From Squalus acanthias (taxonomy: Eukaryota): a stretch of 64,000 nt of DNA. Where the stretch lies: positions 31,994,001 to 32,058,000 of the forward strand of contig CM059432.1 of NCBI GenBank assembly GCA_030390025.1. The letters are read 5' to 3'. This document shows, one piece after another, positions 13,801-59,520 of this stretch (positions are counted from its first letter, which is position 1; each line of letters begins with the position of its first letter). Made by a program: the position numbers and the translations under genes. The notes below the pieces were generated by a model. That model ran no database searches and was not told where the DNA came from. It worked only from the letters and a program-made list of their open reading frames with translations.

Positions 13801-16800
13801 TAATGAATTGGCCTCAACTGCCTTCTGTGGTAGAGAATTCCACAGGTTCACCACTCTCTGGGTGAAGAAATTCCTCCTCATCTCAGTCCTAAATGGCTTA
13901 CCCCTTATCCTTAGACTGTGACCCCTGGTTCTGGACTTCCCCGCCATTGGGAACATCCTTCCTGCATCTAGTCTGTCTAGTCCTGTTAGAATTCTATAAG
14001 TTTCAATGAGATCCCCTCTCATTCTTCTAAACTCTAGCGAATATAAGCCTAATCGACCCAATCTCTCTTCATACGTCATTCTTGCCATCCCAGGTATCAG
14101 TCTGGTGAATCTTCGCTGCACTCCCTCCATGGCAAGAACATGCTTCCTCAGATAAGGCGACCAAAACTGCACACAATACTCAAGGTGTGGTCTCACCAAG
14201 GCCCTGTACAACTGCAGCAAGACATCCTTGCTCCTGTACTCGAATCCTCTCGCTATGAAGGCCAACATACCATTTGCCTTCTTAACCGCCTGCTGCACCT
14301 GCATGCTTACCTTCACCGACTGGTGCACAAGGATACCCAGGTCTCGTTGCACTTCCCCTTTTCCCAATCTATTGCCATTCAGATAATAATCTGCCTTCCT
14401 TTTTTGCCACCAAAGTGGATAACCTCGCATTTATCCACATTATAGTGCATCTGCCATGCATCTGCCCAATCACCCAACCTGTCCAAATCATACTGGAGTT
14501 TCTCTACATCCTCCTCACAGCACACATGCTCACCCAGCTTTGTGTCATCTGCAAACTTGGAGATATTACATCTAGTTCCCTCGTCTAGATCATTAATATA
14601 TATTGTGAATAACTGGGGTCCTAGCATCAATCCCTGCGGTACCCCACTAGTCACTGCCTGCCACTCGGAAAAAGACCCGTTTATTCCAACTCTTTGCTTC
14701 CTATCTGCCAACCAGTTTTCTATCTAAGTCAGTACCTTACCCCCAATCCCACGTGCTTTAACTTTGCACGCTAATCTCTTATGCGGGACCTTATCGAAAG
14801 CCTTCTGAAAGTCCAAATACACCACATGCACTGGTTCTCCCTTATTTATTCTACCAATTACATCCTCAAAAAATTCCAGTAGATTAGTCAAGCATGATTT
14901 ACCTTTTGTAAATCCATGTTGACTTTGTCCGATCCTGTCACTGTTTTCCAAGTGCACTGCTGTTACATCTTTTATAATGGACTCTAACATTTTCCCCACT
15001 ACCAATGTCAGGCTTACCGGTCTATAATTCCCCTTTTCTCTCTACCACCTTTTTTAAATAGTGGGGTTACATTAGCTACCCTCCAATCCATGGGAACTGT
15101 TCCAGAGTCTATAGAATTTTGGAAGATGACCAGCAATGCATCTACTATTTCTAGGGCCACTTCCTTAAGTACCCTAGGATGTAGATTATCAGGCCCTGGG
15201 GATTTATCGGCCTTCAATCCCATCAATTTCCCAAACACCATTTCCCTACAAATACTGATTTCATTCAGTTCCTCCCTCTCATTAGACCCTATGTTCCCCG
15301 ACATCTCTGGGAGTGTATTTGTGTCTTCCTTTGTGAAGACAGAACCAAAGTATGTATTTAATTGGTCTGCCATTTCTTTGTTCCCCATTATAAATTCCCC
15401 TGATTCTGACTGAAAGGGACCTACGCTTGATTTCACCAATCTTTTTCTCTTCCCATATCTATAGAAGCTTTTACAGTCAGTTTTTATGTTCCCTGAAAGC
15501 TTACTCTCATACTCTATTTTCCCCCTCTTAATTAATCCCTTTGTCCTCCTTTGCTGAATCCTAAACTGCTCCCAATCTTCGGGTTTGCTGCTTTTTCTGG
15601 CCAATTTATATGTCTTCTCCTTGGATCTTATGCTATCCCTAATTTTCCTTTTGAGTTGAGTCACCTTTTTTGCTTTATTTTCATGCCAAACAGGGATGAA
15701 CAAATTCTGTAGTTCATCCATGCGATCTTTAAATGTTTGCCATTGCCTATCCACCGTCAACCCTTTAAGTAACATTCCCAATCCATCCTAGCCAACTCGC
15801 GCCTCATACCATCGTAGTTTCCTTTATTTAAATTCAGTACCCTAGTCTCTGAGTCAACTACTACTTCACTCTCCATCTTAATGAAGAATTCTATCATATT
15901 CTGATTGCTCCTCCCCAAGGGGCCTCACACAACAACATTGCTAATCAATCCTTTCTCATTACATAATACCCAGTCTAAGATGGCCTGATCTCTAGTTGGT
16001 TCCTCGACATATTGGTCCAGGAAACCATCCCGTATACACTCTAGGAATTCCTCCTCCACAGTATTGTTACTAATTTGGTTAGCCCAATCTATATGTAAAT
16101 TAAAGTCACCCATGATAACTGCTGTGCCCTTATTGCACGCATCTTTAATTTCCCATTTAATGCCATCCCCAACCTCAGCATTACTGTTTGGGGGTCTGTA
16201 TACAACTCCCACTAACGTTTTCTGCCCCTTGGTATTTCTCAGCTCTACCCATACAGATTCCACATCATCAGAGCTAATATCCTTCCTTACTATTGTGTTA
16301 ATTTCCTCTTTAACCAGCAATGCTACCCCACCTCCTTTTCCTTTTTGCCTGTCCTTCCTGAATATTGAATACCCCTGGATGTTGAATTCCCAGCCTTGGT
16401 CACCCTGGAGCCATGTCTCCGTAATCCCAATTATATCATATCCGTTTACATCTATTTGCGCAGCTAATTCATCCACCTTATTACGAATGCTCCTCGCATT
16501 AAGACACAAAGCCTTCAGGCTTTTTTTTTTGCACACTCTTCGACCTTTTAGAATTATTGTTTACTGTGGCCATGTTTGATTTACACCCTTGATTTCTCTG
16601 CCTTCCACTTTTGCTTTTCTCCTTCCTGTCTTTTGCTTCTATCCTTGCTTCCCTTTCCTCTGTCTCCCTGCACAGGTTCCCAACCCCCTGCCATTTTAGT
16701 TTAAACCCTCCCCAACAGCACTAACAAACACTCCCCCTCGGACATCAGTCCCGGTCCTGCCCAGGTGCAAACCGTCCAGTTTGTACTGGTCCCACCTCCC

Positions 16801-19800
16801 CCAGAACCGGTTCCAATGTCCCAGGAATTTGAATCCCTCCCCCTTGCACCATTCTTCTAGCCACGTATTCATCTGAAATATCCTTCTATTTTTACTCTGA
16901 CTAGTATGTGGCACTGGTAGCAATCCTGAGATTACTATATTTGAGATCCTATTTTTTAATTTACCTCCTAACTCCCGATATTCAGCTTTTAGGACCTCAT
17001 CCCATTTTTTACCTATATCGTTGGTATGTATATGCACCATGACAACTGGCTATTCACCGTCCCCCTCCAGAAGGCCCTGCAGCCGCTCCGAGACATCCTT
17101 GACCCTTGCACCAGGGAGGCAACATACCATCCTGGAAATCTATGGAATTTGCTACCTCAGAGAGCTGTGGAAGCTGCGACATTAAATAAATTTAAAACGG
17201 AGATAGACAGTTTCCTAGCTGATAAGGGAATTAAGGGTTATGGGGAGCGGGCAGGGAAGTGGACGTGAGTCTAGGTTCGGATCAGCCATGATCCTATTGA
17301 ATGGCGGAGCAGGCCCGAGGGGCCATATGGCCTACTCCTGCTCCTACTTCTTATGTTATGTTATGTCCCGTTTGCGGCCGCAGAAACGCCTATCTATTCC
17401 CCTTACAATAGAATCCCCTATCACTATAGCTCTCCCACTCTTTTTCCTCCCGTCCTGTGCAGCAGAACCACCCATGGTGCCAGGAACTTTGTTGCTGCTG
17501 CCTTCCCCCGATAAGCCATCCTCCTCAACAATATCCAAAGTGGTATATCTGTTTGAGAGGGGGATGGCCGCAGGGGACCCCTGCACTACCTGCCTGTGCC
17601 TACTACTCTGCCTGGCGGTCACCCATTCCCTTCCTGCCTGTGCAGCCTTTACCTGCGGTGTGACCAACTCATTAAACGTGATATCCACGACGTCCTCAGC
17701 ATCGCGAATGCTCCAGTATGTATCCATTCGCAGCTCCAGCGCCGCAATGCGGTCTGCCAGTAGCTGCAGCTGGATACACTTCCCACACACATGGTCGTTA
17801 AGGACACGGGAAGTGTCCCTGATTTCCCACATAGTGCAGGAGGAGCATGCCACGGGGCCGAGCTGTGCTGTCATGACTTACCCTTTAATTAATTTAAATT
17901 AAATCAAATCAATACCACAAATTACACTACAATTAAATGATATAGTCAAGGGCCCTTGTTTACTAACACTCCCCGCTACACAACTGAGACCTTAGAAACT
18001 ATAACCACAAAATTAAGACCTTCTAAACGTTCTAAACTATTAACCTTAACTGTCAAACTATAGAGTAGTATAAATACTCACCTGGCCGTACTCACCCAAT
18101 CAGCTGCTTCCTCTTGCCCGCGTCACTTTTTGAATTGTGACGTGGCTCTGGAATGCCGCCGCCAGTCTGCGAGATTGGTAAGCCTCTGAAAAAAGCCTGC
18201 GAAAGTGAGTTTAAATGCTCACTGTACCGTCGCTCTCTCCGCTCCCGACAACGGCCTCTGAAAAAAGCCCGCGAAAGTGAGTTTAAATACTCACTGTACC
18301 GTTGCTCTCTCCGCTCCTGACACCGGCCTCTGGGGGAAAAAAAAGCCCGCGAAAGTGAGTTTAAATATTCACTGTACCGTCGCTCTCTCCGCTCCCGACA
18401 CCGGCCTCTCCGTTCATAAGAGCGGCAACGTCCAAATTACCAGATCGTGCATCAATTCAGCATTGCATGCCGATTGACGTCACAATTTGGCCCATCTAAA
18501 TATCTGAAGCGAATGCAGGCAATGACAGCGCTGCCGACCTGCCCAAAATGGCGGCTACCACGTTCCGCTCCAGAAGGGGGCAGACTTGAGCACTAAAATG
18601 TTGGCTGACAAGCCAGTGCTTTACTGAGGGCGTGTTGCACTGTCGGAGGTGCCGTCATTTTGAATGAGACGTTAAACCGAGGCCCCGTCTACTCTCTGAG
18701 GTGGATGTAAAAGATCCCATTGTAAGGAGGGAGAGAGAAAACGGGGAACTACAGACCAGTTAGCATGACATCAGTAGTAGGGAAAATTCTAGAATCTATC
18801 ATTAAGGATGTGGTAACAGGGCACTTAGAAAATAATAATAGGATTGGGCAGAGTCAACATGGATTTATGAAAGGGAAATTATGTTTGACAAATCTGTTAG
18901 AGTTTTTTGAGATTGTAACGAGCAGAATAAATAAGGGGGAACCAGTGGATGTGGTGTATTTGAATTTTCAGAAGGCATTTGATAAGGTGCCACACAAGAG
19001 GTTATTAAACAAAATTAGGGCTCATGGGAGTGGGGGTAATATATTAGCATGGATTGAGGATTGGTTAACAGACAGAAAACAGAGAGTAGGAATAAATGGG
19101 TCATTTTCGGGTTGGCAGGATGTAACTAGTGGGGTACCGCAAGGATCAGTGCTTGGGCTTCAGCTATTCGCAATCTACATCAATGATTTGGATGAGGGGA
19201 CCAAATGTAATATATCCAAGTTTGCTGATACAAAGCTGGGTGGGAATGTAAGTTGTGAGGAGGATGCAAAGAGGCTTCAAGGGGATATAGACAGGCTAAG
19301 TGAGTGGGCAAGAACATGCCAAATGGAATATAATGTGGAGAAATGTGAAGTTATCCACTTTGGTAGGAAAAATAGAAAAGCAGAGTATTTTTTAAATGGT
19401 GAGAGATGGGAAATGTTGCTGTTCAGAGGGACCTGGGTGTCCTTGTACACGAATCACTGAAAGTTAACATGCAGGTACAGCAAGCAATTAGGAAAGCAAA
19501 TGGTATGTTGGCCTTTATTACAAGATGATTTGAGTATAAGTGTAAAGACATCTTACTGCAATTATATAGGGCCCTGGTGAGACCACACCTGGAGTATTGT
19601 GTACAGTTTTGGTCTCCTTACCTAAGGAAGGATATACTTGCCATAGAGGAAGTGCAACGAAGGTTCACCAGACTGGTTCCTGGGATGGGGGGATTTTCCT
19701 ATGAGGAGAGATTGAGTAGAATAGGCCTATATTCTCCAGAGTTTAGAAGAATGAGAGGTGATCTCATTGAAACATACAAAATTCTTACAGGGCTTGACAG

Positions 19801-25800: not shown

Positions 25801-28800
25801 TGTTCGGCGCCTTCCCGGATGCTTCTCCTCCACTTTGTGCGGTCTTGGGCCAGGGATTCCCAGGTGTCGGTGGGGATGTTACACTTTTTCAAGGAGGCTT
25901 TGAGGGTGTCCTTGAAGCGTTTCCTCTGCCCACCTGGGGCTCTCTTGTCGTGCCGGAGCTCCGAGTAGAGCACCTGTTTTGGGAGTCTCGTATCGGGCAT
26001 GCGGACAATGTGACCCGTCCATTGGAGCCGATCGAGCGTGGTCAAAGCTTTGATGCTGGGGATGTTGGCCTTAGCAATTTGCAGGATCTTGCGGAGGCAG
26101 CGTTGGTGGTACCTCTCCAGTGCTTTGAGGTGCCTGCTGTACATGGTCCATGTCTCTGAGGCATACAGCAGGGCGGGTATCACTGCTGCTCTGTAGACCA
26201 TGAGCTTAGTGCTCTTCAAATAGTGCCTGGGAAACAGCCACCTAAACAGACAGCAATGCATTTAATGTCTCATCCAAAGGATAACACCTCTGACAATGTG
26301 TGAGGTGATGCATTTTGGCAGAAGGAACAGGGAGAGGCAATATACACTTAATGGCACAGTTTTAAAGAGTGTGCAGAGACAGAGGGACCTGGGAGTTAAT
26401 GTGCATAGGTTCCTGAAGGTGGCAGGAGATATTGAGAGTGTGGTTATCAAAGCATATGGGATCTTGGGCTTCAAAAATAGAGGTATTGAGTACAAAAGTA
26501 GAGAAGTTATGCTGAACCTTTATAAAGCGCTGGTTAGGCCACAACTGGAGTATTGCGTCCAGTTCTGGTCACCACACTTTAGGAAGGATGTGAAGGCCCT
26601 TGAGAGGGTGCAGAGGAGATTTACCAGAATGGTTCCGGGGATGGGGGATCTTAGCTACAAGGACAGGTTGGAGAAGCTGGATTTGTTTTCATTGGAGCAA
26701 AGGAGGTTGAGGGGTGATTTGATAGAGGTGTACAAGATTATGACGGGTTTGGATAGGCTAGACAGGGAAAGGCTGTTCCCACTAGTTGATGTTACAAGGA
26801 CTAGGGGACACAGATTTAAGGTTTAGGGCAAGAGATACAGGGGGAACATGAGGAAAAACTTTTTTACGCAGTGAGTGGTGATGACCTGGAACTCGCTGCC
26901 GACGGAAGTGGTGGAAACGGAGACACTCAATATTTTCAAGGAGAGACTGGATAGACACTTGAGGGAAATAAACTTGCAGGGCTACGGGGATAGAGCGTGG
27001 GAATGGGTCTGACTGGATTGCTCTACAGAGAGCCGGCACTGACTCGATGGGCTGAATGGCCTCCTTCTGTGCCGTTATGACTCTATGACAATGTAGCATT
27101 CACTCAGTACTCAACTTGAATATAAAGTTAGTTTATGAGCTCAAACCCTGGTGGGGGCTTCAAACACACAACCTTATCACCTCATTCAGTGTGTCAGGCT
27201 TAGCTCAGCGATAGCGCTCTCGTCTCTGCGTCAGAAGGTTGAGGGTTCAAGCCCCACTCCAGAGATTTGAGCACATAATCTAGGCTGACACTTCAGTGCA
27301 GTACTGAGGGAGTGCTGCATTGTTAGAGGTGCTGTCTTTCAGATGATATGTTACACTAAGGCCCCGTCTGCTCTCTTAGGCTGGCATAAAAGATCCCACG
27401 GCACTATATGATAAACAGCAGGAGATTTCCCCTATTTATCTCTCAACCAACTGCACGAAAATCAGATTATCTAGTCATTTATTTCATTGCTGTATGCAAA
27501 TTGGCTGCCGCGTTTCCTACGTTACAACATGACTACACTTCCAAAGTACTTCATTGTGAAGCGCTTTGGGACATCTTGAGGTCGTGAAAGATGCTATGTA
27601 AATGCAAGTTCTTTCTTTCAGTGTTCATATTTGATGAGTCACTTAGGTGGAAATTTTAACCTAAAAAAACAGGTGGGTTGGGGTCGTGTGGAAAGTTAAA
27701 GTGTTAAAAATCTGAATCGTGACCAGAACCCGCCTCCAACCCATCCACTTCCGCCCACAACCCACTGCCAGGAGGTGGTTCGTCTATGTAAATATTATAA
27801 TGAGGCTGCAAGCCTCGGATTTAACCTCCATTTTGAATTGAACTTTAGCTGCTCCAGTTTCGCAGGCCTCGTGAAACCCGGCAGCTAAAGTAAGGCGAGG
27901 ACTGCTGGATCCAGGAGGCTGTCTGCCTCCCCCTCACCCCCCATCCCCACTCCTCCTGGCCCCCTGTGCTCCTCTGGCCTCCTATCTGGTGCTCCGGCCC
28001 CCGATCTGGCTGCGGGTGGGAAACAGAGGTTTCCCTTGCAAATCAGGCCCTGCCGTTAATTCTTCCAGGTTTCCAGACCGCTTCTGAGCACCCCCACTCC
28101 CAACCCGCCTCCCCATTAAAATTCAGGCCTTACTTACTCTGGACGACAATATCCAACACTGTTAGCTTCTGAAAGAGAGAGATAGGTTAGCGGTTTGGGT
28201 GAGGCTCCTTTTCCATAACTGGACTGCATCAGTTCAGGTGAAGCTTTCCATCTCTTTAAGATGCTGACAGGTGGGCTGCATACTTTCTGGTTTTCTTTCT
28301 AGTAATTTCCTGACCTTGGTTGAGCTGTGCATTGAGGATGGGGGTGGCAGAGCCGGTGGAGGTAAATTGATCCTATGCAAGGAGGGAGGGCAGATGGGAA
28401 CATAGGAGCCAAGATCACCCTGAGTATCCGCTTCGCACCATCCAGCATTTGGTTATAGAATCCCATTGACAGTGGCCTGGGAGAATTTCCCTGACGAGCC
28501 GGGGAATGCGGTACTACATGGATGGAGGAAGGACCTAAAAGAGGGAACATATGGAATGGGGGGAACCAGGAATGTACAATTTTTCCAATATTTCTGGTCT
28601 GGAGAAATTTGAATGTGTTTGTTCACATGGATGGTCCTCAGCCAGTCAGATGTTCAGAGTTCACTGATTCTTGGTGCCTAATATTACCACATTTACTTTC
28701 AAGCTTGCGACTGAGAAGGAAATCCAGCAAGCCACCCTTTTGGAACTTTTTAAGTCATCAAGTCTGAGGAGAGTTACGTTGGTTTTGATTTTCATCTGGT

Positions 28801-29499: not shown

Positions 29500-32400
29500 C
29501 ACACTCACACTCACACTCACTCTCTCTCCAGGGACTTGAACTCATAAAGCTAGGCTGACACTCCAGTGAGGTCCTGTCTTTCGGATGAGACGTTAAACCG
29601 AGGTCCTGTGTGCTCTCTCAGGTGGACGTAAAAGACCCCATGGCGCTATTTTGAAGAAGAGTTATCCCCGGTGTCCTGGCCAATATGTATCCCTCAACCA
29701 ACATAACAAAAAACAGATTATCTGATCATTATTATATTGCTGTTTGTGGGACCTTGCTGTGCGTAAATTGGCTGCCGCGTTTCCCACATTACAACAGTGA
29801 CTCCACTTTATTGGCTGTAAAGCGCTTTGAGACGTCCAGTGATTGTGAAAGGTGCTATATAATTGCAAGTCTTTCTTTCTTTTAACAGACACACATGCTT
29901 TCCAGCAAGAGTTATTGGATTCCACTCTGTAACCCAGAGCTCACTGAGGCTAACTGTGGCATACGTTCCTGTCCTGCCTCAGATCAACTAAAATTGATAT
30001 CTCTCTCTAAGAAGAGCTTAAAATTAACCAAAAGCAGATGATAGGGCAACTTTACACAAATACGGCTCCTCACCCACCAATGGTGCACATCAGGAATGAG
30101 GGCACACAGTCCCCATGATCTACCACCCATAATATATGTAACGTGATTTAGTAAAATTACCCCTATAATTTAGCGGAGATAGCTTTTGTGCTGTTCAGTT
30201 GACTAAATTGTGGTAAACTGGTATTTTTGTTTAACAATAATCAAAGCTAGTTGGGACTTGATCAAGCTTTGCTTATGCCAGTGATTTGCATATAATTTGA
30301 CATCACTGAAAGTGACGGTTGTGATACTGAATGATTACATTTCTTAACTTATTCCCCTATTTCTTCCCTGGCATCACAGGTTTGTAAACAACTTTGTGTA
30401 TTACGGATTGAACTTTAATGTCGGAAGCTTTGGCACAAACATTTACTTAACGTACTTCATCTTTGCACTGGTGGAGGTCCTGCGTGGCTCCTGCATCTGG
30501 CTACTGGAGAAATTCGGTCGGAAAAAATGCCAAGGAGGTTTCCTGTTGCTTACCGGAGTTTCATGCTTCCTTATATTGGCTTTTCCAGAAGGTAGGAATG
30601 GAGCAAATGGGTGGTGCAGCAGGTCATAGCAACCTTGGGTACCCATTTCAAATTGGTGCTCTTAGAATCATAGAATCTTACAGCACAGAAGTAGGCCATT
30701 CGGCCCATCATGCCTGTACCGGCTCTTTGAAAGAGCTATCCAATTAGTCCCACTCCCCCGCTTTTTCCCTATAAACCTGCAAATTTTTCTTTTTCAAGTA
30801 TTTATCCAATTCCCTTTTGATACCTGGGAGTGAGTTACAGGCTTGCATCTAATCGAGGGGTTTGGATAGTCTATATAGAATAATGGATACCTGGGAGTGA
30901 GTTACAGGCTGGAATCTAATTGAGGGGTTTGGATAGTCTATATAGAATCATGGATACCTGGGAGTGAGTTACAAGCTGGAATCTGATCGAGGGGTTCGGA
31001 TGGTGTCTATATAGAATAATGGATACCTGGGAGTGAGTTACAGGCTGGAATCTAATTGAGGGGTTTGGATAGTCTATATAGAATCATGGATACCTGGGAG
31101 TGAGTTACAGGCTGGAATCTAATCGAGGGGTTCGGATGGTGTCTATATAGAATAATGGATACTTGGGAGTGAGTTACAGGCTGGAATCTAATCGAGGTGT
31201 TCAGATGGTGTCCATATAGAATAATGGATACCTGGGAGTGAGTTACAGGCTGGAATCTAATCGAGGGGTTAAGATGGTGTCTATATAGAATAATGGATAC
31301 CTGGGAGTGAGGTGTGAGGCAATGAGGAACATTAATTGAAATGATCGCTAATGCATTTACAATTAAATCTTGCATTCTTACTCCATTTCCTCGCTCATAA
31401 AGCAACTTACATATGAATGAATACTTGATTTTCCAATCAAAAGAGCTGCATAAAGGTCAAAGACTATAAGTCACTGTGCTCCTCAGAGAGAGGACAATTT
31501 GTGTTTAATGAACATTGAGTATTCCATGCACTGCCATTGCTGCACACAGATGGGAGTGAGACTAGGTATCGAGAGATGCCTGTGGGAGATCAGGAGTCTG
31601 AGAGAAGGGAGTAGGAGACTAGGAGCCAGAGTAAGGGGAACAACAATGGGAGAGTGCGGAATAGTGGGACTATAGTGGTGAGTACTTGACGAGCACATTT
31701 CCCAGAGTGAGCAAGGGTATCATCCACCAAATTTATCCTCACATAAGGCAATCCCCTTCATTTTCAATCCCCTCCTCCCTACCAGCGAGTGATTTAAATT
31801 TTATGGGGGAGAAATTTGTATCGCCCCATTTGGGGCGCAATTATCGGCCGGGCACAAAGTTTAGCGCCTGGTGCTAATTATCGCCTCCGACTGCAAACTT
31901 GGCTTCTATCGCCCCGGAGGTGATTGGAGCGCTAAATCAGGCGCTAATGCCGAGGAGCGAGGTGCTACCTCAGAGCGCTGGCGAAGCTCATGTGATGTCA
32001 GTCAGCAATGGAACACAGACACACATGGCACCGGCCAGTTCTTAAAGGGGAGGGTCGATCTTGCTCTCCATCCACACCCTGCTCATTGCAGCCTTGAATC
32101 TTGGCCTGGAGAGACCTGTACATCAAATCTGCTGGAAAGAACAATGGAGAGTCCCAGGGAAAGAGTTCAGAGTGCAGCCCCCATAGTCTTTTCTAAATCG
32201 ATGCAAGGAAGGTCAAATCAAAATTATTCTGCAAAGAGCTGCTCAGTACCCAAAACTCCTTCACACAGCGTTGAATCTCTCCAGAAGTCTCACTCTGTCT
32301 CTCTCTCGGAATGCGTGGTGCAAAAATGTCACCGACAAAAAAAGGCAGGAAGCGGTTGACTTTAAATAGCGCTCCCCCAGTCCCTTCTCGACTGCAAAAC

Positions 32401-37222: not shown

Positions 37223-37894
37223 ATCCCACTGTCTTACAAATTTCAGGCCAAATTTCAGTGGAAAATGCAAACGTGACTTAAGATAAATGAACGATGATGC
37301 ACACTCTGTATCATTCCAATACAAGATGTCTGTGTTGCAATCTTGTGATTTGTTGCTCCTTAATGTAGATAAAACTTTGAACTAAATTTCCTTCTTTATG
37401 TACGCTTTATCAAACTGGTCATTTTTAAATCCAAAACCAGAGTTTTATCAGTAAGTGCAGCATCAGGGAAAAGGAAAAGCACACATTGTACAGTTAGCTG
37501 CTGCAGTCCTTTAAATCACTGCAGCAGGGCCTGGAATCCTCCCTTCATGCATGGGAGCTCCCGGGGATCCCTACTATGCAACCAAATTGGTTAACAAATG
37601 TGTTAAAATAACCCATGGAAGAATATGTGTGCTAACGCATTGGTTACAGAAAACTGCTGGAGGCAATTTCACACAAACTTTCCTAAGTTCTTCCCTCATG
37701 AAGATTACCCCCACTGCATCAGTGGGACAGATTCCTATTTACCACAGAACCCATCTTTAAGGCATTCCTAATTTTTTTTTTCATTCATTCTCAGGATATG
37801 ACCATTGCTAGCAAGGCTGGCATTTATTGCCTATCCCTGGTTGCCTTTGAAATGATGGTGGTGGGCCGCCTTCTTGAACCTCTGCAGTCCATAC

Positions 37895-40800
37895 GGGAAC
37901 GGTAGTGTAGTGGTAATGTCACTGGGCTAGTAATCCAGTAGGCCTGGACTAATGATCCAGAGACGTGAGTTCAAATTCAGTTAATTTAATAAATCTGGAA
38001 TAAAAAGCTAGTATCAGTAATGGTGACCATGAAACTATCGGATTGTCGTAAAAACCCATCTGGTTCACTAATGTCCCTTTAGGGAAGGAAATCTGCCGTC
38101 CTTACCTGGTCTGGCCTATATGTGACTCCAGACCCACAGCAATGTGGTTGACTCTTAACCGTCCTCTGCCTAGCAAGTCACTCAGTTGTAACTAACCGCT
38201 ACGAAACAAAATAATAAGAATGAAACTGGACGGACCACCTGGCATCAGCTATGGACACGGCAACGGCACACCCAGCCCAGTCGACCCCGCAAAGTCTTCT
38301 TCACCAACATCTGGGGACTTGTGCCAAAATTGGGAGAGCTGTCCCACAGACTAGTCAAGCAATAACCTGACATAGTCATACTCACAGAATCATACCTTTC
38401 AGCCAATGTCCCAAACTCCTCCATCACCATCCCTGGGTATGTCCTGTCCCACTGACAGGACAGACTCACAAGAGGTGGCGGCACAGTGGTATACAGTCGG
38501 GAAGGAGTGGCCCTGGGAGTCCTCAACATTGACTCCGGGCCCCATGAAGTCTCATGGCTTCAGGTCAAGCATGGGCAAGGAAACCTCCTGCTGATTACCA
38601 CCTACCGCCCTCCCTCAGCTGATGAATCAGTACTCCTCCATGTTAAACACCACTTGGAAGAAGCACTGAGAGTAGCAAGGGCACAGAATGTACTCTGGGT
38701 GGGGGACTTCAATGTCCATCACTAAGAGTGGCTCGGTAGCACCACTACTGACCGAGCTGGCCGAGTCCTGAAGGACATAGCTGCCAGTCTGGTCCTGCGA
38801 CAGGTGGTGAGTGAACCAACACGAGGGAAAAACCTACTTCACCTCGTCCTCACCAATCTACCTGTCGCAGATGCATCTGTCCATGACAGCATTGGCAGCA
38901 GTGACCACCGCACAGTCAGTGTGGAGATGAAGTCCCGTCTTCACACTGAGGACACACTCCATCGTGTTGTGTGGCACTACGACCGTGCTAAATGGGATAG
39001 ATTCAGAACAGATCTAGCAGCTCAAAACTGGGCATCCATGAGGCGCTGTGGGCCATCAGCAGCAGAAGAATTGTATTCCACCACAATCTGTAACCTCATG
39101 GCCTGGCATATCCCTCACTCTACCATTACCACCAAGCCAGGGGATCAACCCTGGTTCAACAAGGAGTGTAGATGAGCATGCCAGGAGCAGCACCAGGCGT
39201 ACCTAAAAATGAGGTGCCAACCTGGGGAAGCTGCAACACAGGACTACATGCATGCTAAAAAACGGAAGCAGCATGCTATAGACAGGGCTAAGCGATCCCA
39301 CAATCAACAGATCAGATCAAAGCTCTGCAGTCCTGTCACATCCAGTCTTGAATGGTGGTGGACCATTAAACAACTAACGGGGGGAGGAGACGGCTTCAAG
39401 AATATCCCCATCCTCAATGATGGTGGAGCCCAGCACGTGAGTGCAAAAGCCAAGGCTGAAGCGTTTGCAACCAACTTCAGCCAGAAGTGCCTATTGGATG
39501 ATCCATATCGGCCTACTCCCGAGGTCCCCACCATCACAGAAGCCAGTCTTCAGCCAATTCGATTCACTTCACGTGATATCAAGAAATGGCTGAGCGCACT
39601 GGATACAGCAAAGGCTATGGGCCCCGACAACATCCCGGATATCGTGCTGAAGACTTGTGCTCCAGAACTAGCCGTGCCTCTAGCCAAGCTGTTCCAGTAC
39701 AGCTACAACACTGGCATCTATCCGACAACGTGGAAAACTGCCCAGGTATGTCCTGTCCACAAAAAGCAGGACAAATTCAACCCGGCCAATTACCGCCCCA
39801 TCAGTCTGCTCTCAATCATCAGCAAAGTGATGGAAGGTTTCTATCAAGCGACACTTACTTACCAATAACCTGCTCACTGATGCCCAGTTTGGGTTCCGCC
39901 AAGACCACTCGGCTCCCGACCTCATTGCAGTCTTGGTCCAAACATGGACAAAAGAGCTGAATTCCAGAGGTGAGGCGCGAGTGACTGCCCTTGACATCAA
40001 GGCAGCATTTGACCGAGTGTGGCATCAAGGAGCCCTAGTAAAACTGAAGTCAATGGGAATCGGGGAAAACGCTCCACTGGTTGGAGTCATACGTAGCACA
40101 AAGGAAGATGGTTGTGGTGGTTGAAGGTCAATCATCACAGCCCCAGGACATCACTGCAGGAGTTCCTCAGGACAGTTTCCTAGGCCCAACCATCTTCAGC
40201 TGATTCATCAATGACCTTCCCTCCAACATAAGGTCAGAAATGGGGATGTTCGCTGATGACTGCACAGTGTTCAGCGCCATTCACAACTCCTCAGATAATG
40301 AAGCAGTCCATGCCCGCATGCAACAAGACCTGGACGACGCTCAGGCTTGGGCTGATAAGTGGCAGGTAACATTCGCGCCACAGAAGTGCCAGGCAATGAC
40401 TATCTCCAACAAGCGAGAGTCAAACCACCTCCCCTTGACATTCAATGGCATTACCATCGCTGAATCCCCCACTATCAACATCCTGGGGGGTCACCATTAA
40501 CCAGAAACTGAACTGGACCAGCCACATAAATACTGTGGCAACAAGAGCAGGTCAGAGGCTAGGTATTCTGCAGCGAGTGTCTCACCTCCTGACTCCCCAA
40601 AGCCTTTCCACCATCTACAAGGTACAAGTAAGGAGTGTGATGGAATACTCTCCACTTGCCTGGATGAGTGCAGCTCCAACAACACTCAAGAAACTCGACA
40701 CCATCCAGGACTAAGCAGCCCGCTTGATTGGCACCCCATCCACCACCTTAAACATTCACTCCCTCCACCACCGGCACACCGTGGCTGCTGTGTGCACCAT

Positions 40801-41154
40801 CTACAAGATGCACTGCAGCAACTCGCCAAGGCTTCTTCGGCAGCACCTCCTAAACCCACGACCTCTTCCACCTAGAGGGACAAGGGCAGCAGGCACATGG
40901 GAACATCACCACCTACAAGTTCTCCTCCAAGTCACACACCATCCTGACTTAGAAGTATATCGCCGATCCTTCATCGTCGCTGGGTCAAAATCCTGGAACT
41001 CCCTCCTAACAGCACTGTGGGAGTACCATCACCACATGGACTGCAGCGGTTCAAGAAGGCGGCTCACCACCACCTTCTCAAGGGCAACTAGAGATGGGCA
41101 ATAAATGCTGGCATTGCCAGCGACGCCCAGATCCCATAAACAAATTAAAAAAAA
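37895..41154 (+). mobile_element. Full-length, decayed single-ORF CR1/L2-group LINE (APE+RT) with tRNA-derived head and Deu domain
   Basis: A box tagtgtagtgg 37903, B box gttcaaattc 37969, Deu-like domain 38050-38160, APE (TNIWGL, LTESYL, VGDFN, SDH), RT (GPDNIP, DIKAAFD, FADD), poly(A); several stops and frameshifts; inserted into an antisense tail of its own family (37775-37894 and 41155-41310). Confidence 0.85.
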
Positions 41155-41435
41155 ATACTCCCACAATGCTGTTAGGCAGGGAGTTCCAGGATTTTGACCC
41201 AGCGACGGTGAAGGAACAGCAATATATGTCCAATTCAGGATGCTATGTGACTTGGTGGGGAACTTGGAGGTAATAGTGTTCCCATGCAACTATTGTCCTT
41301 GTCCTTCTAAGTTGATTATTTAGTGCTGAATTGTGGACAGTTTCATGTTATGGGCCCATGTCTGCTGGGAACTGGACTGAGACTGCCCAAACTCACTTCA
41401 CATAGGGATTGCACACCTTTGGGATTTCAGACAAT

Positions 41436-41620
41436 GAGGGTCATTTTAGCTGAAGCCGCCGGCGGGAAACTGGCGTGATCAGATTGGCTTCCCATTTTAC
41501 ACCACGCATGATATTAATTTCCATTGATGTCAATCAAAATAAAATTGATGGGGTGTAAAATGGATGGCTGATCTGATTGTGTCATTTTCCCGCCAAGCGG
41601 GTTAGGTTAAAATTGCCCCC
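41436..41620. mobile_element. Palindromic MITE
   Basis: gagggtcatttta ... taaaattgccccc; TSD AAT. Confidence 0.7.
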
Positions 41621-41861
41621 AATGAAATACTTTAGAAGTCAGTCTTGTTTTGTAGGCAAACACAGCAACCAAATTTCACAAACAGCAATGATATATATTG
41701 GCCTCGGCACCAGGAGAACTTACCTGCTCTTCTTCAAATAGTACAATAGGATCTTTTACATCCAATTTTGCAGGCAGACTGTGCTTTGGCTAACGTCTCA
41801 TCTAAAAGATGGCATCTCTGCAATGCAGCACTCATTCAGTAATAGAGTGTCAGTTTATAAT

Positions 41862-42605
41862 GGGCCGAAAATTGATCCCGGGACGCGAGAGTACGCACTG
41901 CATACTCTCGCGTATTCCCACTCCAATTGCCGGTTTTCTGCATGCCCTGCGCATGCGCTGAAAACCGGCAATTGCTCTTCCGAAAAGGGGGCGGGGCCTG
42001 GGTGCATCGCGTGCGCGCTACAGGCTGCGCGCACGCTGTGCACTTCATGCTTTGGACGCGCAGGTAAGTAGGGAAGATTTTGGAAATGTAAAAAGGAGGA
42101 GTAAGACCCACTTTTAAGAAGGTAAGTAGTGAATTAAGTATTTTTTTGAATTTTTTTTTACAGGTATATCTTTTTTATAGACTTTAAAGACAGGTAAGTT
42201 TATTTTTATAACTTTTTAAAAGATTTTAAATTTTTTCAAAAATTTAATTTTTTATTTAAAATGGTTAATTTAATTAACTATACTTATTTTATTAATGTGA
42301 TGGTTTTTTTTTAAAATTTAATTGAGGTTTAGCTGTTATTTTGGGGGGGTGTAAGATTCATAAGTCTCACAGCCATGCTGTGAGACTTATGAATGGAAGA
42401 TGGTGTGCTGCCATTGGCTCTAACTGAGTCACGTGATCCCACAGCTCGCACGAATTCACTACGCCGCTGGGATACGCAAGCCCAGCACAGCTGATGTCTG
42501 GAACATCAAGTTCGTGCGAGCTGGATCAGAAAAAGCATAAGCGAGGTGAGACATCGCGGGGAAGGCTTACCCCAGCGGGAACAGAGCGAGATCAATTTCT
42601 GGGTC
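41862..42605. mobile_element. Non-autonomous DNA transposon inserted in a SINE
   Basis: gggccgaaaattgatc ... gatcaatttctgggtc inverted ends; SINE halves on both sides. Confidence 0.7.
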
Positions 42606-43665: not shown

Positions 43666-43924
43666 TTGACAAGTGAACACGTGGAGCTCCCAAGTGTCAT
43701 ATAGACAATTCATGATGTTACTAAATTACTGACTGTCCGATAGATTTGTATCAGTTATACACACAAAATCAGATAAACATTTGTCTCCTAGAGGGTTATA
43801 CAATTAAACAATATTGAATTGATTTACTTACATGTATCAACCTCTAATCATCTGACTATTTTTAGATTTTTGTATTTGAAATTTAGGCAAGAGAGGCAAC
43901 ATCTTTAACTCTTTGAACCCAATG

Positions 43925-44325
43925 CAAGTATAGTTATGTTACTGAACTAATAATCCAGAGAATGTGAGTTAAAATCTCAGCATGAGAATTTGAATTCAGT
44001 GTTTAAAAAAAACTGGTCTCAGTAAAAGGGACCATGAAGCTGCCGGATTGTAGGGAAACCCCAACTGATGCACTAATGTCCTTTTGGGAAGGAAACCTGC
44101 CTCCCTTAGCCAGTCTGGCCCATATGTGACTCCAGTGCCACATCAATGTGGTTGACTCTTAACAACCCTTTGAAATGGTCTAGCAAGTCATTCAATTGTA
44201 TCAAACTGCTGCAGAGACTAGCAGTTCAAGAAAAAGACTCACCAACACCTTATCAAGGTAACTAGGGTACGCAATAAATGTCGACCTTGCCAGCGATGCC
44301 CACATCCTGATAATTAATTATTTTT
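43925..44325 (+). mobile_element. DeuSINE (SacSINE1-like): tRNA head, Deu domain, LINE tail
   Basis: cactaatgtccttt..ggaaggaaacctgcc..tgtgactccag..tgtggttgactcttaac, then a tail matching 41043-41135. Confidence 0.8.
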
Positions 44326-50444: not shown

Positions 50445-51995
50445 TCCTCACCACTCGCTGCATAAAAAAGTTTTTCCTCACATTCCCCCTGTATCTCTTG
50501 CCCTAAACCTTAAATCTGTGTCCCCTAGTCCTTGTAACATCAACTAGTGGGAACAGACTTTCCCCATCTAGCCTATCCAAACCCGTCATACACCTCTATC
50601 AAATCACCCCTCAACCTCCTTCGCTCCAATGAAAACAAATCCAGCTTCTCAACCTGTCCTTGTAGCTAAGATCCCCCATCCCCGGAACCATTCTGGTAAA
50701 TCTCCTCTGCACCCTCTCAAGGGCCTTCACATCCTTCCTAAAGTGTGGTGACCAGAGCTGGATGCAATGCTCCAGTTGTGGCCTAACCAGCGCTTTATAA
50801 AGATTCAGCATAACTTCTCTACTTTTGTACTCAATACCTCTATTTATGAAGCCCAAGATCCCATATGCTTTGTTAACCACTCTCTCAATATGTCGTGCCA
50901 CCTTCAGGGACCTATGCACATTAACTCCCAGGTCCCTCTGTCCCTGCACACTCTTTAAAACTGTGCCATTAAGTGTATATTGCCTCTCCCTGTTCCTTCT
51001 GCCAAAATGCATCACCTCACATTTCTCTGTATTAAATTCCATCTGCCACTTGTCTGCCCATTCTGCTAGCCTTTCTATGTCCTGTTGCAGTCGATTGGTA
51101 TCATCCTCACTGTTTGCCACACCCCCAAGTTTGGTGTCATTGGCAAATGTAGAAATTCTACTCTGTATTCCAGCTAATTTATATATATATCAAAAAATGC
51201 AGTGGCCCCAGCACTGACCCTTGGGAACACCACTGTCTACCATCCTCAAGTCTGAAAAACAGCCATTTACCACAACTCGCTGTTTTCTGTACTTAAGCCA
51301 GTTCCTTATCCAAGCTGCCACTGACCCACCTATTCCATGAGCCTCAATTTTGTTAACAAGCCTTCTATGTGGTACTTTGTCAAACACCTTCCTAAAATCC
51401 ATGTAGACAACATCCATTGCATTCCCTTCATCAATCCTCCCTGTTACTTCATCAAAAAATTCAATTAGATTCATCAAACACGATCTGCCTTTTACAAATC
51501 CGTGTTGGCTCTCCATAATTAGCTTAAACCTCTCCAAGTACCCGTTAATTTTTTCCTTGATTATTGTTTCTAAAACTTTACCCACCACTGATGTTAAACT
51601 GACCGGCCTATAGTTACTAGGATCGTCCTTACACCCTTTCTTGAACAATGGTGTCACATTTGCCACTTTCCAATTCTCAGGCACCTCCCCCACATCTAGG
51701 GAAGATTGGAAAATTATGGCAAGCCCTTCCGCTATCTCCTCCCCCAATTCTCTTAGCAACCTGGGATGCAAGCCATCTGGACTTATCCACTGTAAGCATA
51801 CCCAGCCTTTTTAGTACATCCTGTCAATCAATTTTCACCCCTTCCATTGCTTCTACCTTTTCCGCTTCTACCTTTTCCACTTCTACCGATATTTTGTCAG
51901 CATCCACCTCCTTAGTAAACACCGATACAAAGTACTCATTGAGTATTCTAGCCTTGCCTTGTGCCTCTAAGCATATATCACCTTCTTTGTCCCTA
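50445..51995 (-). mobile_element. CR1 LINE RT fragment
   Basis: ORFs 50611-51120, 51190-51771, 51824-52054. Confidence 0.9.
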
Positions 51996-52416
51996 GGCCT
52001 ATATTCTCTAGAGTTTAGAAGAATGAGAGGTGATCTCATTGAAACATACAACATTTTTACAGGGCTTGACAGGGTAGTTGCAGGGAGGATGTTTCCCCTG
52101 ACTGGGGAGTCTAGAACCAGGGATCACAGTCTCAGAATAAGGGGTCGGCCATTTAGGACGGAGATGAGGAGAATTTTCTTCACGCAGAGGGTGGTGAACC
52201 TTTGGAATTCTCTACCCCAGAGGGCTGTGGAGGCTCAGTCGTTGAGTATATTCAAGACAGAGATCGATAGATTTTTGAAGATCAAGGGAATCAAGAGATA
52301 TAGGGATAGTGCAGGAAAGTGGAGATGAGGTAGAAGAAGACCCATGATCTTATTGAATGGCGGAGCAGGCTCAAAGGGCCAAATGGCCTACTCCTGCTCC
52401 TATTTCTTATGTTCTT
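51996..52416 (+). mobile_element. CR1 LINE 3' fragment, followed by a Deu-LINE tail at 52436-52615
   Basis: Nearly identical to 19724-20150. Confidence 0.85.
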
Positions 52417-53020
52417 AAAAGTTTAGTGCTGGGGCTTCATCGTCGCTGGGTCAAAATCCTGGAACTCCCTACCTAACAGCACTATGGGAGTACCTTAACC
52501 ACATGGACTGCAGTGCTTCAAGAAGGTGGCTCACCACCACCTTCTCAAGGGCAAGTAGGGATGGGCAATAAATTTGGCCTTGCTAGTGACGCCCATATCC
52601 CAAGAATTAATTTTTTTTAAATGAAGTAAGAGGAGGCCATGACTAAGTGCTTTCCCTCCATGCACTAACTTGGGAAACTTATCACTCAGAGCCTACCACG
52701 ATCTTTCTCCTAGCAGTTCCTGGGGTCGGTGGAGATAGCGTCGGTAAAGGAGCCTTTCCACTGGCATCTACATGTGGTGGGTGAGGAAGGGATGGCTAAT
52801 GGCTGTCCCAGCAGGGGCAGGAAGCGGGAAATCGAGTTCAGGGCAGGAGCAGAGAAGTAGGCCTCACTATCTGACTTTTCCCCATTTCCACTGCTAGCCC
52901 ACCCAATTTTGGGCAGAATGGTGGAGGAAAATTCAGTCTGTCTCAAGAACTCCCAGGTTAGATGTGACATGGTTAGATGCAAAGTTAAGCGCTCTCTATT
53001 CTGCCCCAGCAAAAGGGCAG

Positions 53021-54447: not shown

Positions 54448-54564
54448 CAAATGGTGACACAATGATGCATTTCTACAGCCAATAGTGTCACTCTGTTTGC
54501 AAACCTGGCATTCCTCCAAAAGGTGACACCGCCCTTTAAAAATAGGTCTTTAAAAATTGAAGTG
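54448..54564. promoter_or_regulatory. Candidate striated-muscle enhancer (E-box, MCAT, T-box, MEF2, NKX2-5-like sites)
   Basis: CAAATG 54448, CATTCCT 54509, AGGTGACA 54521, TTAAAAATAG 54536, TGAAGTG 54558 within ~120 bp. Confidence 0.4.
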
Positions 54565-55528
54565 GCTTAGCCTCTGAGTTAGAAGGTTGTGGGTTCAAGT
54601 CCCACTCCAGAGACTTGAGCACATAATCTAGGCTGATTCTTCAGTGCAGTAGTGAGGGAGTACTGCGCTGTCAGAGGTGCTGTCTTTCAGATGAGACAGT
54701 AAACCGAGGCCCCGTCTGCCCTTTCAGGTAAATGATCTCACGGCACTATTCGAAGAAAGGCAGGGGAGTTATCCCTGGTGTCCTGGGCAATATTTTTCCC
54801 TCAACCAACATCACTAAAACACATTATCTGGTCATCAACATAGCTGTTTGTGGGATCTTGCTGTGTGCAAACTGAATGCCGCATTTCCCTATTTTATAAC
54901 AATGATTACACTTCAAAAGTACTTCATTGGCTGTAAAGCGCTTTGGGGTGTACTGAGGTTGTGAAAGGAGCTATATAAATACAAGGAAGTTCTTTCTTTC
55001 TAGGCCAAACAGCAAGCTTATTCCAATCGGAATGATTGTGGCATCAAATAAGAATATTATGACTATCTCTTTGATCACTGGGTATTTTCTGGGATAGTTT
55101 AGAGGTACATATTTCATTGCAGAATTTGAAACCGTGCAGGAGAGCAGAGTCCTCCATACACAATAGTCACTAAAATGAACCACAAAATTATAACCTCTCA
55201 GTAACCATAGACATACAAGGCATAAAGGTTGCAATTTCCTCCTGATATTAAGAAACCTGGGTCGTGGACCAAGGCCCAGAGAGCAGGTCACCACTGAAGT
55301 GATGAGGATAGGAAAGAGGACGAGATAAATCAAGAAGCAGTGCTTAGATGATGCCAAACTAGGCATTTAAAAGCTGTTGGATTGTAGGAGGAAGGGATGG
55401 CCAAGGCAGGTAATGAGTTCTACAGTCCTGTGCTCCTGGGAGAGAACAGGATAGTGCTAGTGCCATGATTTCAACACAATACTTGATGGTAATGCACTGG
55501 TTTTATCCCTTGAATGAAGGGGACTCAC

Positions 55529-56922: not shown

Positions 56923-59520
56923 TTCTTTGATGAAATAACGGAGAGGGTTGAGGAAGGTAGTGCAGTTGATGTTGTGTATATGGACTTTCAACAGGCATTT
57001 GATAAAGTACCGCATACTAGCCTGTGTCTCAGCCAGTGGCTCAGTTGGTAGCATAGGATTACATAGGATATACGGCACAGAAACAGGCCATTCGGCCCAA
57101 CCAGTCCATGCCGGCGTTTATGCTCCACTTGAGCCTCCTCCCGTCTTTCCTCATCTAAATCTATCAGCATAACCCTCTATTCCCTTCTCCCTCATATGCT
57201 TGTCTAGCCTCCCCTTAAATGCATCGATACTATTCGCTTCAACCACTCCCTGTGGTAGCGAGTTCCACATTCTCATCACTCTTTGGGTAAAGAAGTTTCT
57301 TCTCAATTCCCTATTGGATTTCTTGGTGACTATCTTATATTGATGGCCTCTAGTTATGCTCCTCCCCACAAGTGGAAACATTCCCTCTGTATCCACTCTT
57401 ATCAAAACCTTTCATAATTTTGAAGACCTCTATTAGGTCACCCCTCATCCTTTTTTCAAGAGAAAAGAGACCCAGCCTGTTCATCCTATCCTGATATGTA
57501 TACCCTCGCATTTCTGGTATCATCCTTGTAAATCTTTTCTGCACCCTCTCCAGTGCCTCTATATCCTTTTTATAATATGTGGAATTCTCTACCACAGAAG
57601 GCTGTGGAGGCCAAGTCACTGAATATATTTAAGAAGGAGATAGATAGATTTCTAGACACAAAAGGCATCAAGGGGTATGGGGAGAGAGCAGGAATATGGT
57701 ATTGAGATAGAGGATCAGCCATGATCATATTGAATGGCGGAGCAGGCTCGAAGGGCCGAATGGCCTACTCCTGCTCCTATTTTTCTATGTTTCTATAATA
57801 TGGCGACCAGAACTGTACGCTGTACTCCAAGCACCCTTGCCTCTGAGTCCGAAGGTTGTGAATTCATAGTCCCACTCCAGAGACTTGAGCACAAAAAATC
57901 TAGGCTGGTAGTACTGAGGGAGTGCTGCGCTGTCAGAGGTGCCGTCTTTTGGATGAGACATTAAACAGAGGCCCTGTCTACTCTCTCAGGTGGGCATAAA
58001 AGATCCCATAGCACTATTTCAAAGAAGAGCAGGGGAGTCCTGGCCAATACTTATCCCTAAATCAATATCACAAAAAAAACCCAGATTATCTGGTCATTAT
58101 CACATTGCTGTATGTGGGATCTTGCTGTGCACAAATTGGCTGCTGCATTTCCTATATTATAACAGTGACTACACTTCAAACAGTACTTCTCTGGCTGTAA
58201 AGCGCTTTGGGACGATGGTAGTTGTGAAAGGCGCTATATAAATGCAAGTCTTTCTTTTCCTTTTTCTCCTTTAGGTAAATCGAAGCCCATGGGATTACAG
58301 GGGCAGTGGGAGCGTGGATACAATCGAAGCCCATGGGATTAAAGGGGCAGTGGGAGCGTGGATACAATCGAAGCCCATGGGATTAAAGGGGCAGTGGGAG
58401 CGTGGATACAATCGAAGCCCATGGGATTAAAGGGGCAGTGGGAGCGTGGATACAATCGAAGCCCATGGGATTAAAGGGGCAGTGGGAGCGTGGATACAAT
58501 CGAAGCCCATGGGATTACAGGGGCAGTGGGAGCGTGGATACAATCGAAGCCCATGGGATTACAGGGGCAGTGGGAGCGTGGATACAATCGAAGCCCATGG
58601 GATTAAAGGGGCAGTGGGAGAGTGGATACAATCGAAGCCCATGGGATTAAAGGGGCAGTGGGAGCGTGGATACAATCGAAGCCCATGGGATTACAGGGGC
58701 AGTGGGAGCGTGGATACAATCGAAGCCCATGGGATTACAGGGGCAGTGGGAGCGTGGATACAATCGAAGCCCATGGGATTAAAGGGGCAGTGGGAGCGTG
58801 GATACAATCGAAGCCCATGGGATTAAAGGGGCAGTGGGAGCGTGGATACAATCGAAGCCCATGGGATTAAAGGGGCAGTGGGAGCGTGGATACAAAATTG
58901 GCTAAGAGTAGAAAGCAGAGGGTAGTGGTAAATGGCTGATTATCAGACTGGAGGGAAGATACAGTGGTCTCCCTCAGGGATTAGGACCACTGCTCTTTTT
59001 GGTATATATTAATGACCTGGACTTGGGTATAGGAGGCAATTTTTTAAATTTTGCAGATGGCACAAAACTTGGCAATGTAATAAACAGTGAGGAGGATAGT
59101 GGTAGACTTCAGGAGGACATAGACAGACTGGTGAAATGGGCAGACACATGGCAGATGAAGTTTAATGCAGAGAAGAGTGAAGTGTTGCATTTTGGAAGGA
59201 AGATAGATAGGGCAAAACTGTTTCCACTAGCAGGAGAGTCACAGATTTAAGATAATTGGCAAAGAACCAAGGGGGAGATGAGAAATCTTTATATGCAGTG
59301 AGTTGTTATGATCTGGAATGCACTGCCTGAAAAGGCAGTGCAAGTAGATTCCATAGTAACGTTCAAAAGGAAATTGGATAGCTACTTGAAAAGCAAAAAT
59401 TTTCAGGACTATGGGGAAAGAGCAGGGGATGGGACTAATTGGATAGCTCTTTCAAATAGCCAGCACAGGCATGATGGGCTGAATGGCCTCCTTCTGTGCT
59501 GTAAAATTCTATGATTCTAT
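56923..59520 (+). mobile_element. CR1 RT fragment, split by a SINE and carrying a tandem array
   Basis: FFDEITER..YMDFQQAFDKVPH | [28 protein letters not shown]. Confidence 0.8.
58278..58893 (+). repeat. 44-bp minisatellite, 14 copies, derived from CR1 RT sequence
   Basis: aatcgaagcccatgggatta(a/c)aggggcagtgggagcgtggatac x14; encodes IEAHGIKGAVGAWIQ. Confidence 0.95.

Follow-up and report, generated by a model that had tools for sequence, protein, structure and literature searches.

The SINE at positions 43918-44325 of the window (the whole 64-kb stretch of repeat-rich vertebrate DNA from Squalus acanthias that was analysed) consists, by alignment, of the 5′ and 3′ ends of a LINE at 37895-41155 and nothing else, apart from approximately 15 nucleotides at the junction. 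From its sequence, the LINE is best classified as an elasmobranch Zenon element of the CR1 group, and a tRNA-like head stands at the front of both elements. The best explanation, held at slightly better than even confidence, is that a tRNA-headed Zenon LINE gives rise to ready-made SINEs by internal deletion. The SINE is unrelated to the Deu domain. The coordinates of the relevant features are given in Table 1.

Table 1. Parts of the SINE and the LINE, and Deu-bearing sequences elsewhere in the window.
Feature	Coordinates	Strand	Description
SINE head	43918-43988	+	decayed tRNA-like unit; one anticodon-like hairpin 43942-43958; decayed B box 43966-43978
SINE body	43989-44200	+	homologous to Zenon 5′ UTR, 80% to LINE body; not Deu
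SINE junction	44201-44215	+	joins LINE about 38200-38204 with about 41039; ~15 nt
SINE tail	44216-44325	+	equivalent to LINE 3′ end; AATAAA; A/T-rich terminus; first TTTT at 44321
LINE	37895-41155	+	~3.3 kb; single endonuclease-RT frame; A9 end
LINE tRNA-like head	37895-37985	+	A box 37903-37913; anticodon-like hairpins 37922-37938 and 37944-37960; B box 37967-37978
LINE 5′ UTR body common to SINE	37986-38204	+	by alignment; 15-nt motif in 7/7 elasmobranch Zenon consensuses
APE endonuclease and reverse transcriptase frame	38192-41053	+	PF14529, PF03372, PF00078; no ORF1
LINE 3′ tail	41039-41155	+	hairpins z = -2.59; AATAAA 41100-41105; A9 41147-41155
Older LINE 3′ end copy, left half	37773-37892	-	79% to 41036-41155
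Older LINE 3′ end copy, right half	41156-41315	-	82% to 40867-41025
Deu motif sites	5872/5912, 18660/18710, 26260, 27389, 29581/29631, 41741, 54687/54731, 57949/57999		
True DeuSINE copies	5703-6111, 18559-18724, 27189-27626, 29519-29885, 41616-41883 (-), 54542-55004, 57802-58266		identified by published Deu motifs

The SINE matches the two ends of the LINE

The 5′ part of the SINE aligns locally with the LINE (38002-38226 against 44007-44246) at 180 of 224 positions (80%), the final ~20 columns, which lie beyond the junction, being weak; the whole 5′ part scores 274.5, whereas the highest of 300 shuffles scored 52.5. The tails align (41039-41147 against 44216-44320) at 82 of 105 positions (78%) with a score of 101.5, the highest of 300 shuffles being 38. 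Comparison of the window with itself pairs the same regions, 43942-44210 with 37944-38200 and 44220-44307 with 41045-41134. The original prediction of a two-part match, in which the head and body of the LINE are followed directly by its last ~100 nucleotides, was correct, as was its placement of the LINE start at 37895. It also recognized a shared break, which it set slightly short at ~38190; in the LINE, the break falls around 38200-38204 and homology takes up again at 41039. The two-part SINE is present once in the 64-kb window. No convincing target-site duplication was found at either element, the best being 6 nucleotides at the SINE and 4 at the LINE.

Over its full length (positions 1-71 of 71), the Rfam tRNA model aligns with the head of the SINE, with 14.5 bits and an E-value of 3.9 against a gathering score of 29, and ARAGORN at default settings found no tRNA in it. 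Rfam gave no tRNA match for the LINE head, which ARAGORN detects only at relaxed thresholds. The Rfam searches returned 6, 1 and 2 sub-threshold matches, among which only the weak tRNA alignment of the SINE head is informative. The assignment of the heads to a tRNA origin therefore rests on the familiar consensus patterns of the A and B boxes and on cleaner published consensuses, the tRNA model scores being weak. The SINE head has one anticodon-like hairpin and the LINE head two, the extra hairpin occupying ~22 nucleotides, and the B box of the LINE is damaged in the window copy by a deletion of ~28 nucleotides.

The LINE is an elasmobranch Zenon element

A single open reading frame encoding an APE endonuclease and a reverse transcriptase, the lack of ORF1 and a terminal poly-A (A9) fit the features of Zenon described in PMC13343379 (2026). 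Zenon elements are reported there from five elasmobranchs, a coelacanth and a hagfish, all without ORF1 and all with the poly-A end; those of elasmobranchs are absent from repeat databases and group with elements of crustaceans. The motif of the shared body occurs in seven rows of the consensus table, which are all seven elasmobranch Zenons (five species). In the first 400 letters given in the supplement, 7/7 elasmobranch consensuses start with the A/B-box head and the body and then continue into LINE-specific sequence, whereas none of the three hagfish and coelacanth consensuses does so, the coelacanth start being of low confidence. By eye, the consensuses of sharks and of a ray retain both the A and the B box, and the first ~350 nucleotides of the window LINE are roughly 97% identical to SquAca_Zenon-1, three deletions aside. 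The words tRNA, promoter and polymerase III do not occur in the main text of that paper. CR1-Zenon-like LINEs are only named in the available text of a whale shark preprint (10.1101/443036), and no tRNA-headed or Pol III-driven shark LINE was found among the literature matches listed, which cover titles and abstract openings and few subscription journals.

The closest named proteins are shark gene models, from Heterodontus francisci (83%) and Heptranchias perlo (82-85%). At E<=1e-30, 628 library proteins matched, the best at 40% or less apart from short fragments at 65-82%. Among 175 pattern matches in metagenomes there are 22 relatives (23-39%), 13 of them with more than 400 nucleotides of upstream sequence, and neither head, body nor tail has a match among these 22 distant relatives (best E-value 0.21). 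In the closest intact one (38%), the 5′ region (420-740) has no tRNA head and an ATG stands just before the endonuclease. No further copies were found in viral contigs or prokaryote genomes.

The reading frame of the window copy is broken by three frameshifts and six stops. Its first in-frame ATG (38927) is downstream of the endonuclease, and the Heptranchias model P0009 begins at the corresponding methionine. An earlier ATG at 38220, which is not in frame with the endonuclease, opens a 45-codon frame (38220-38357) over the start of the ORF; its context recurs by eye in six of the seven published consensuses, and in that of the ray it likewise lies outside the endonuclease frame. No candidate emerged when proteins were searched with a frame spanning the body/junction and the ORF. 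Only the 3′ tail, which carries AATAAA 30 nucleotides before the end, folds better than shuffles; no stable fold was found in the 5′ region, for which z is 0.27 both for 37893-38320 and for the body.

The full-length LINE interrupts an older, antisense copy of its own 3′ end, and therefore head, body and ORF were inserted as one unit; 10 nucleotides were lost at the insertion site, without a target-site duplication. Five Zenon-type tails are present in the window, two followed by a T-run (that of the SINE and that at 51994-52620) and three by A-runs. In the second of these (51994-52620), a CR1 element is followed immediately after its 3′ end by a Zenon tail truncated at the 5′ side (88% to 40948-41136), which terminates in T8 without poly-A.

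The shared body is not a Deu domain

The original prediction identified the shared middle part as a Deu domain and, pointing to the conserved Deu/Nin domains of deuterostome SINEs including AmnSINE1, proposed that this domain may be a functional 5′ UTR element in an autonomous parent. The two-part alignment is the single observation in favour of this. Two Deu motifs taken from a published alignment match the window 7 and 6 times, against chance expectations of 1.27 and 0.05, and none of the 7 or the 6 matches is inside the SINE or the LINE. Six true Deu copies of the window align as one family, with head, body and tail unlike those of the SINE at 43918. A profile of these six copies has 20 matches at E<=10 within the window, none of them in either the SINE or the head of the LINE, and neither of the two gave a match when searched alone at E<=100. 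Conversely, three motifs of the SINE/LINE body are absent from the available part of the PMC7245038 supplement, in which the published Deu alignment shows no resemblance to the body, and by eye the Meta and UCON3 domain alignments show no likeness to it. Deu identity of the shared body is thereby ruled out, since the motifs and profile match elsewhere in the window and in neither element. The proposed origin of the Deu domain of AmnSINE1 falls because the body shared by SINE and LINE is not Deu; that Zenon is the parent of the Deu domain is now highly improbable.

The DeuSINE copies of the window resemble SacSINE1, a name that we infer from published descriptions. The sole physical link between the Zenon family and Deu seen in the window is at 12833-13243, where an internal fragment of 260 nucleotides from a Zenon reverse transcriptase (87% to 40074-40332) abuts the 3′ part of a DeuSINE; the joint is due either to a template switch or to nested insertion. 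Other repeats of the window include long imperfect, MITE-like hairpins (41433-41623 and 41922-41976) with weak sub-threshold Rfam microRNA matches, and tandem arrays at 58278-58895 (period about 88 nucleotides) and 30819-31311 (about 68 nucleotides).

Joints in sequencing runs and the origin of the SINE

At least half of the words of the first 808 nucleotides of the LINE are present in 17 of 24 listed public sequencing runs (6 organisms, 7 studies), while runs X18-X20 contain 0.04-0.07 of them. Depth and joints were read from runs X1, X13 and X22, a fourth (X23) having yielded no reads; the Logan contigs are blind to transcript start, strand and polymerase. In X1, where single contigs have a baseline of about 20 and depth is not equivalent to copy number, the body has a summed depth of 0.88-1.16 M, which falls to 0.52-0.60 M immediately beyond the junction and climbs to 10.6 M at the 3′ end. 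X13 has a profile of the same shape, except that depth sinks to 33 k across 38193-38303. In X22, 165 reads aligned, and the body end is joined before 41029 and before 41081 (3-4 reads). Among the joints listed (the 15 best supported, with 6019 further ones, and a between-letters table), 38196>41005, 38202>41025, 38204>41029 and 38246>41005 connect head to tail, each in one or two contigs where counted and at depths of 293-1089 in X1; further joints internal to the LINE ORF are also among those listed. The joint 38246>41005 keeps LINE-specific sequence beyond the break of the SINE, and therefore internal deletion does occur in the Zenon family.

No single contig or read in the aligned runs spans the whole LINE, as might be expected if a SINE and a LINE had fused by chance at this locus alone. 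Such a one-off chimera has a negligible probability and is ruled out by the 7/7 published elasmobranch consensuses, which contain the same join.

The mechanism proposed is as follows. The A and B boxes would most likely serve as an internal Pol III promoter from which the entire 3.3-kb RNA is transcribed, and the reverse transcriptase would bind the structured 3′ tail and copy the RNA by target-primed reverse transcription, the established mode of LINEs. Since the element contains its promoter as well as its tail, a deletion sparing the first ~300 and the last ~100-150 nucleotides would at once create a working SINE. Its products would not have to acquire a head; the joints are observed, and their mobility may be presumed. 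Internal-deletion derivatives of Zenon in Lepidoptera (the available text of PMC6740152) count in favour of this origin.

The prediction that the SINE is the LINE minus its middle is supported by the alignment, the joints and the published consensuses, but its origin from the neighbouring LINE is not, since the SINE is 20% diverged from that subfamily and differs by eye from 7/7 published elasmobranch consensuses at shared positions. Being old and single-armed and departing by eye from all seven consensuses, the SINE would belong to an earlier lineage: it may be an old two-part derivative of a single-hairpin Zenon rather than of the neighbour's subfamily. With one hairpin, its head seems to predate the two-hairpin head of the LINE.

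A single-hairpin head of tRNA size is also predicted if the SINE came first. In this reading, a form of which the original prediction gave as its alternative, a tRNA SINE consisting of head and body could have been joined to Zenon by template switching in early elasmobranchs and become the 5′ end of the LINE; the lineage of the SINE at 43918 would then be the donor or its sister, and only some later SINEs would be deletions. Head and body are indeed missing from the Zenons of hagfish and coelacanth and from the 22 distant relatives, and the grouping with crustacean elements in the available parts of PMC13343379 raises the possibility that Zenon lacked a host promoter when it arrived. The departures of the SINE from the seven LINE consensuses at shared sites point the same way, and one of these SINE-type variants recurs in X1 and X13, as the consensus of loose ends before 38076. 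Against capture, the body is missing from the published domain alignments compared (Deu, Meta and UCON3), and the joint 38246>41005 with its LINE-specific sequence, together with the several points at which the tail is re-entered, indicates deletion. Capture is the less probable of the two origins. The lineage at 43918 in particular was more probably cut from an early Zenon than the source of the Zenon front end. Deletion and capture can both hold, in succession.

T-run depletion and the transcribing polymerase

If an internal Pol III promoter drives the whole RNA, the coding strand of the LINE may be expected to have lost its T-runs for that reason. TTTT does not occur in 3244 nucleotides of this strand (4.5 expected), and the longest TTTT-free stretch on the + strand of the window (3416 nucleotides, the next being 912) covers the LINE. 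TTT occurs 9 times against 21.9 expected (0/3000 shuffles as low). The observed/expected ratio of TT is 0.72, in comparison with 0.87-1.33 in five other LINEs of the window and in the 12 relatives, among the 22, that have long coding stretches; 214 other windows of equal size all reach 0.94 or more. A-runs are not depleted. Of three definitions of a near-terminator that were tried, four T in five nucleotides (3 against 8.1 in dinucleotide shuffles, 8/300 as low) and four in six (12 against 20.2, 5/300 as low) are depleted, and five in seven are not (153/300), the two positive outcomes carrying no correction for three attempts; neither of the first two losses is present in any of the eight comparators. 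No TTTT is created by any of the 40 common base differences listed (of which there are 578 further ones).

The absence of TTTT alone is not significant when TT content or codon use is kept, the probability of zero being 0.15 in dinucleotide, 0.44 in trinucleotide and 0.13 in synonymous-codon shuffles, so that TTTT loss is largely a consequence of TT loss. TA is depleted as well, with an observed/expected ratio of 0.65. A near full-length CR1-type LINE at 13650-17200 (- strand) has a TTTT-free coding-strand stretch of 2324 nucleotides with normal TT content. As a sequence pattern, the shortage of T-runs fits transcription of the LINE by Pol III, without proof.

An RNA of the same anatomy might instead be made by Pol II, with the head as a passenger or an aid to Pol II and the shortage of TT and TA due to RNA stability or to avoidance of nucleases that cut at UU and UA. 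The AATAAA and poly-A end of the LINE and the dependence of TTTT loss on TT loss are in keeping with this, and the depletion of TA indicates that other pressures could explain the pattern. RNA made by Pol III is uncapped and hard to translate. According to the available text of PMC10886601, non-LTR elements use Pol II and the templates of Pol III are short (the division of labour between these polymerases and the bivalve partners of Zenon are also treated in PMC11481361 and PMC10294476, as far as their text is available). Yet shark and ray consensuses retain both boxes, TT is not lost in neighbouring LINEs or in relatives without the head, and the poly-A end, being common to all Zenons, says nothing about the promoter. 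This Pol II account is somewhat less likely than not. Between Pol III and Pol II as such, the balance is about even for the Zenon LINE. The fuller proposal, which falls only a little short of an even chance, is that elasmobranch Zenon may be an autonomous protein-coding retrotransposon that is transcribed by Pol III from a tRNA-derived promoter, is translated without a cap, has no in-frame AUG before its endonuclease and sheds SINEs by single deletions, thus uniting a SINE and its LINE in a single element.

Comparison with known elements

The seven elasmobranch Zenon LINEs of PMC13343379 (SquAca_Zenon-1 and six others) are like the window LINE in lacking ORF1, in ending in poly-A and in their length of about 3.3 kb, according to the available parts of that paper, the main text of which does not describe the head, the loss of T-runs or a derived SINE. 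The Persaeus SIDE/Zenon elements of Lepidoptera (PMC6740152, available text) are likewise non-autonomous, combine the 5′ and 3′ ends of Zenon and arose more than once; unlike the shark derivative and its parent, which are both headed, they are described there as lacking both homology to tRNA and a Pol III promoter. The bipartite SINEs Bov-A/Bov-tA, WALLSI2 and CoeSINE4 (PMC5786205, available text) similarly derive body and tail from the 5′ and 3′ parts of a partner LINE. In contrast, the bodies in that account come from RTE and Vingi LINEs only and the head was added after the deletion, whereas the CR1-group LINE of the shark is already headed.

The DeuSINEs SacSINE1, LmeSINE1 and AmnSINE1 (PMC5499810, PMC4824008 and PMC7245038, available parts) have in common with the SINE at 43918 a tRNA-like head, a shark host and a partner of the CR1/L2 group, but their body is not homologous to that of this SINE or to the LINE head, and their tail is different; DeuSINEs and SINE modules are also treated in the available text of PMC3747384 and PMC3531059. 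Cassandra, Helenus and Ajax (TRIMp3; PMC10886601, available text) are likewise retroelements with a Pol III promoter derived from a small RNA; in contrast to Zenon, they are described as non-coding LTR elements of 311-1263 bp that are not autonomous.

Implications

The finding leaves the Deu domain itself unexplained, and it should alert annotators that an abundant shark repeat can be mistaken for Deu. It bears on two textbook statements, that LINEs are transcribed by Pol II and SINEs by Pol III, and that SINE heads are added to LINE fragments. As to the second, it shows how a LINE of the CR1 group could turn into a SINE in one step, a route for which the available text of the PMC5786205 survey gives no example in that group. 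As to the first, if the Pol III reading is true, an uncapped RNA of 3.3 kb must be translated, which would imply an unusual start mechanism in the body of ~200 nucleotides. Since this LINE family has been kept from sharks to rays and combines a tRNA head with a T-poor coding strand, it makes the Pol II rule directly testable.
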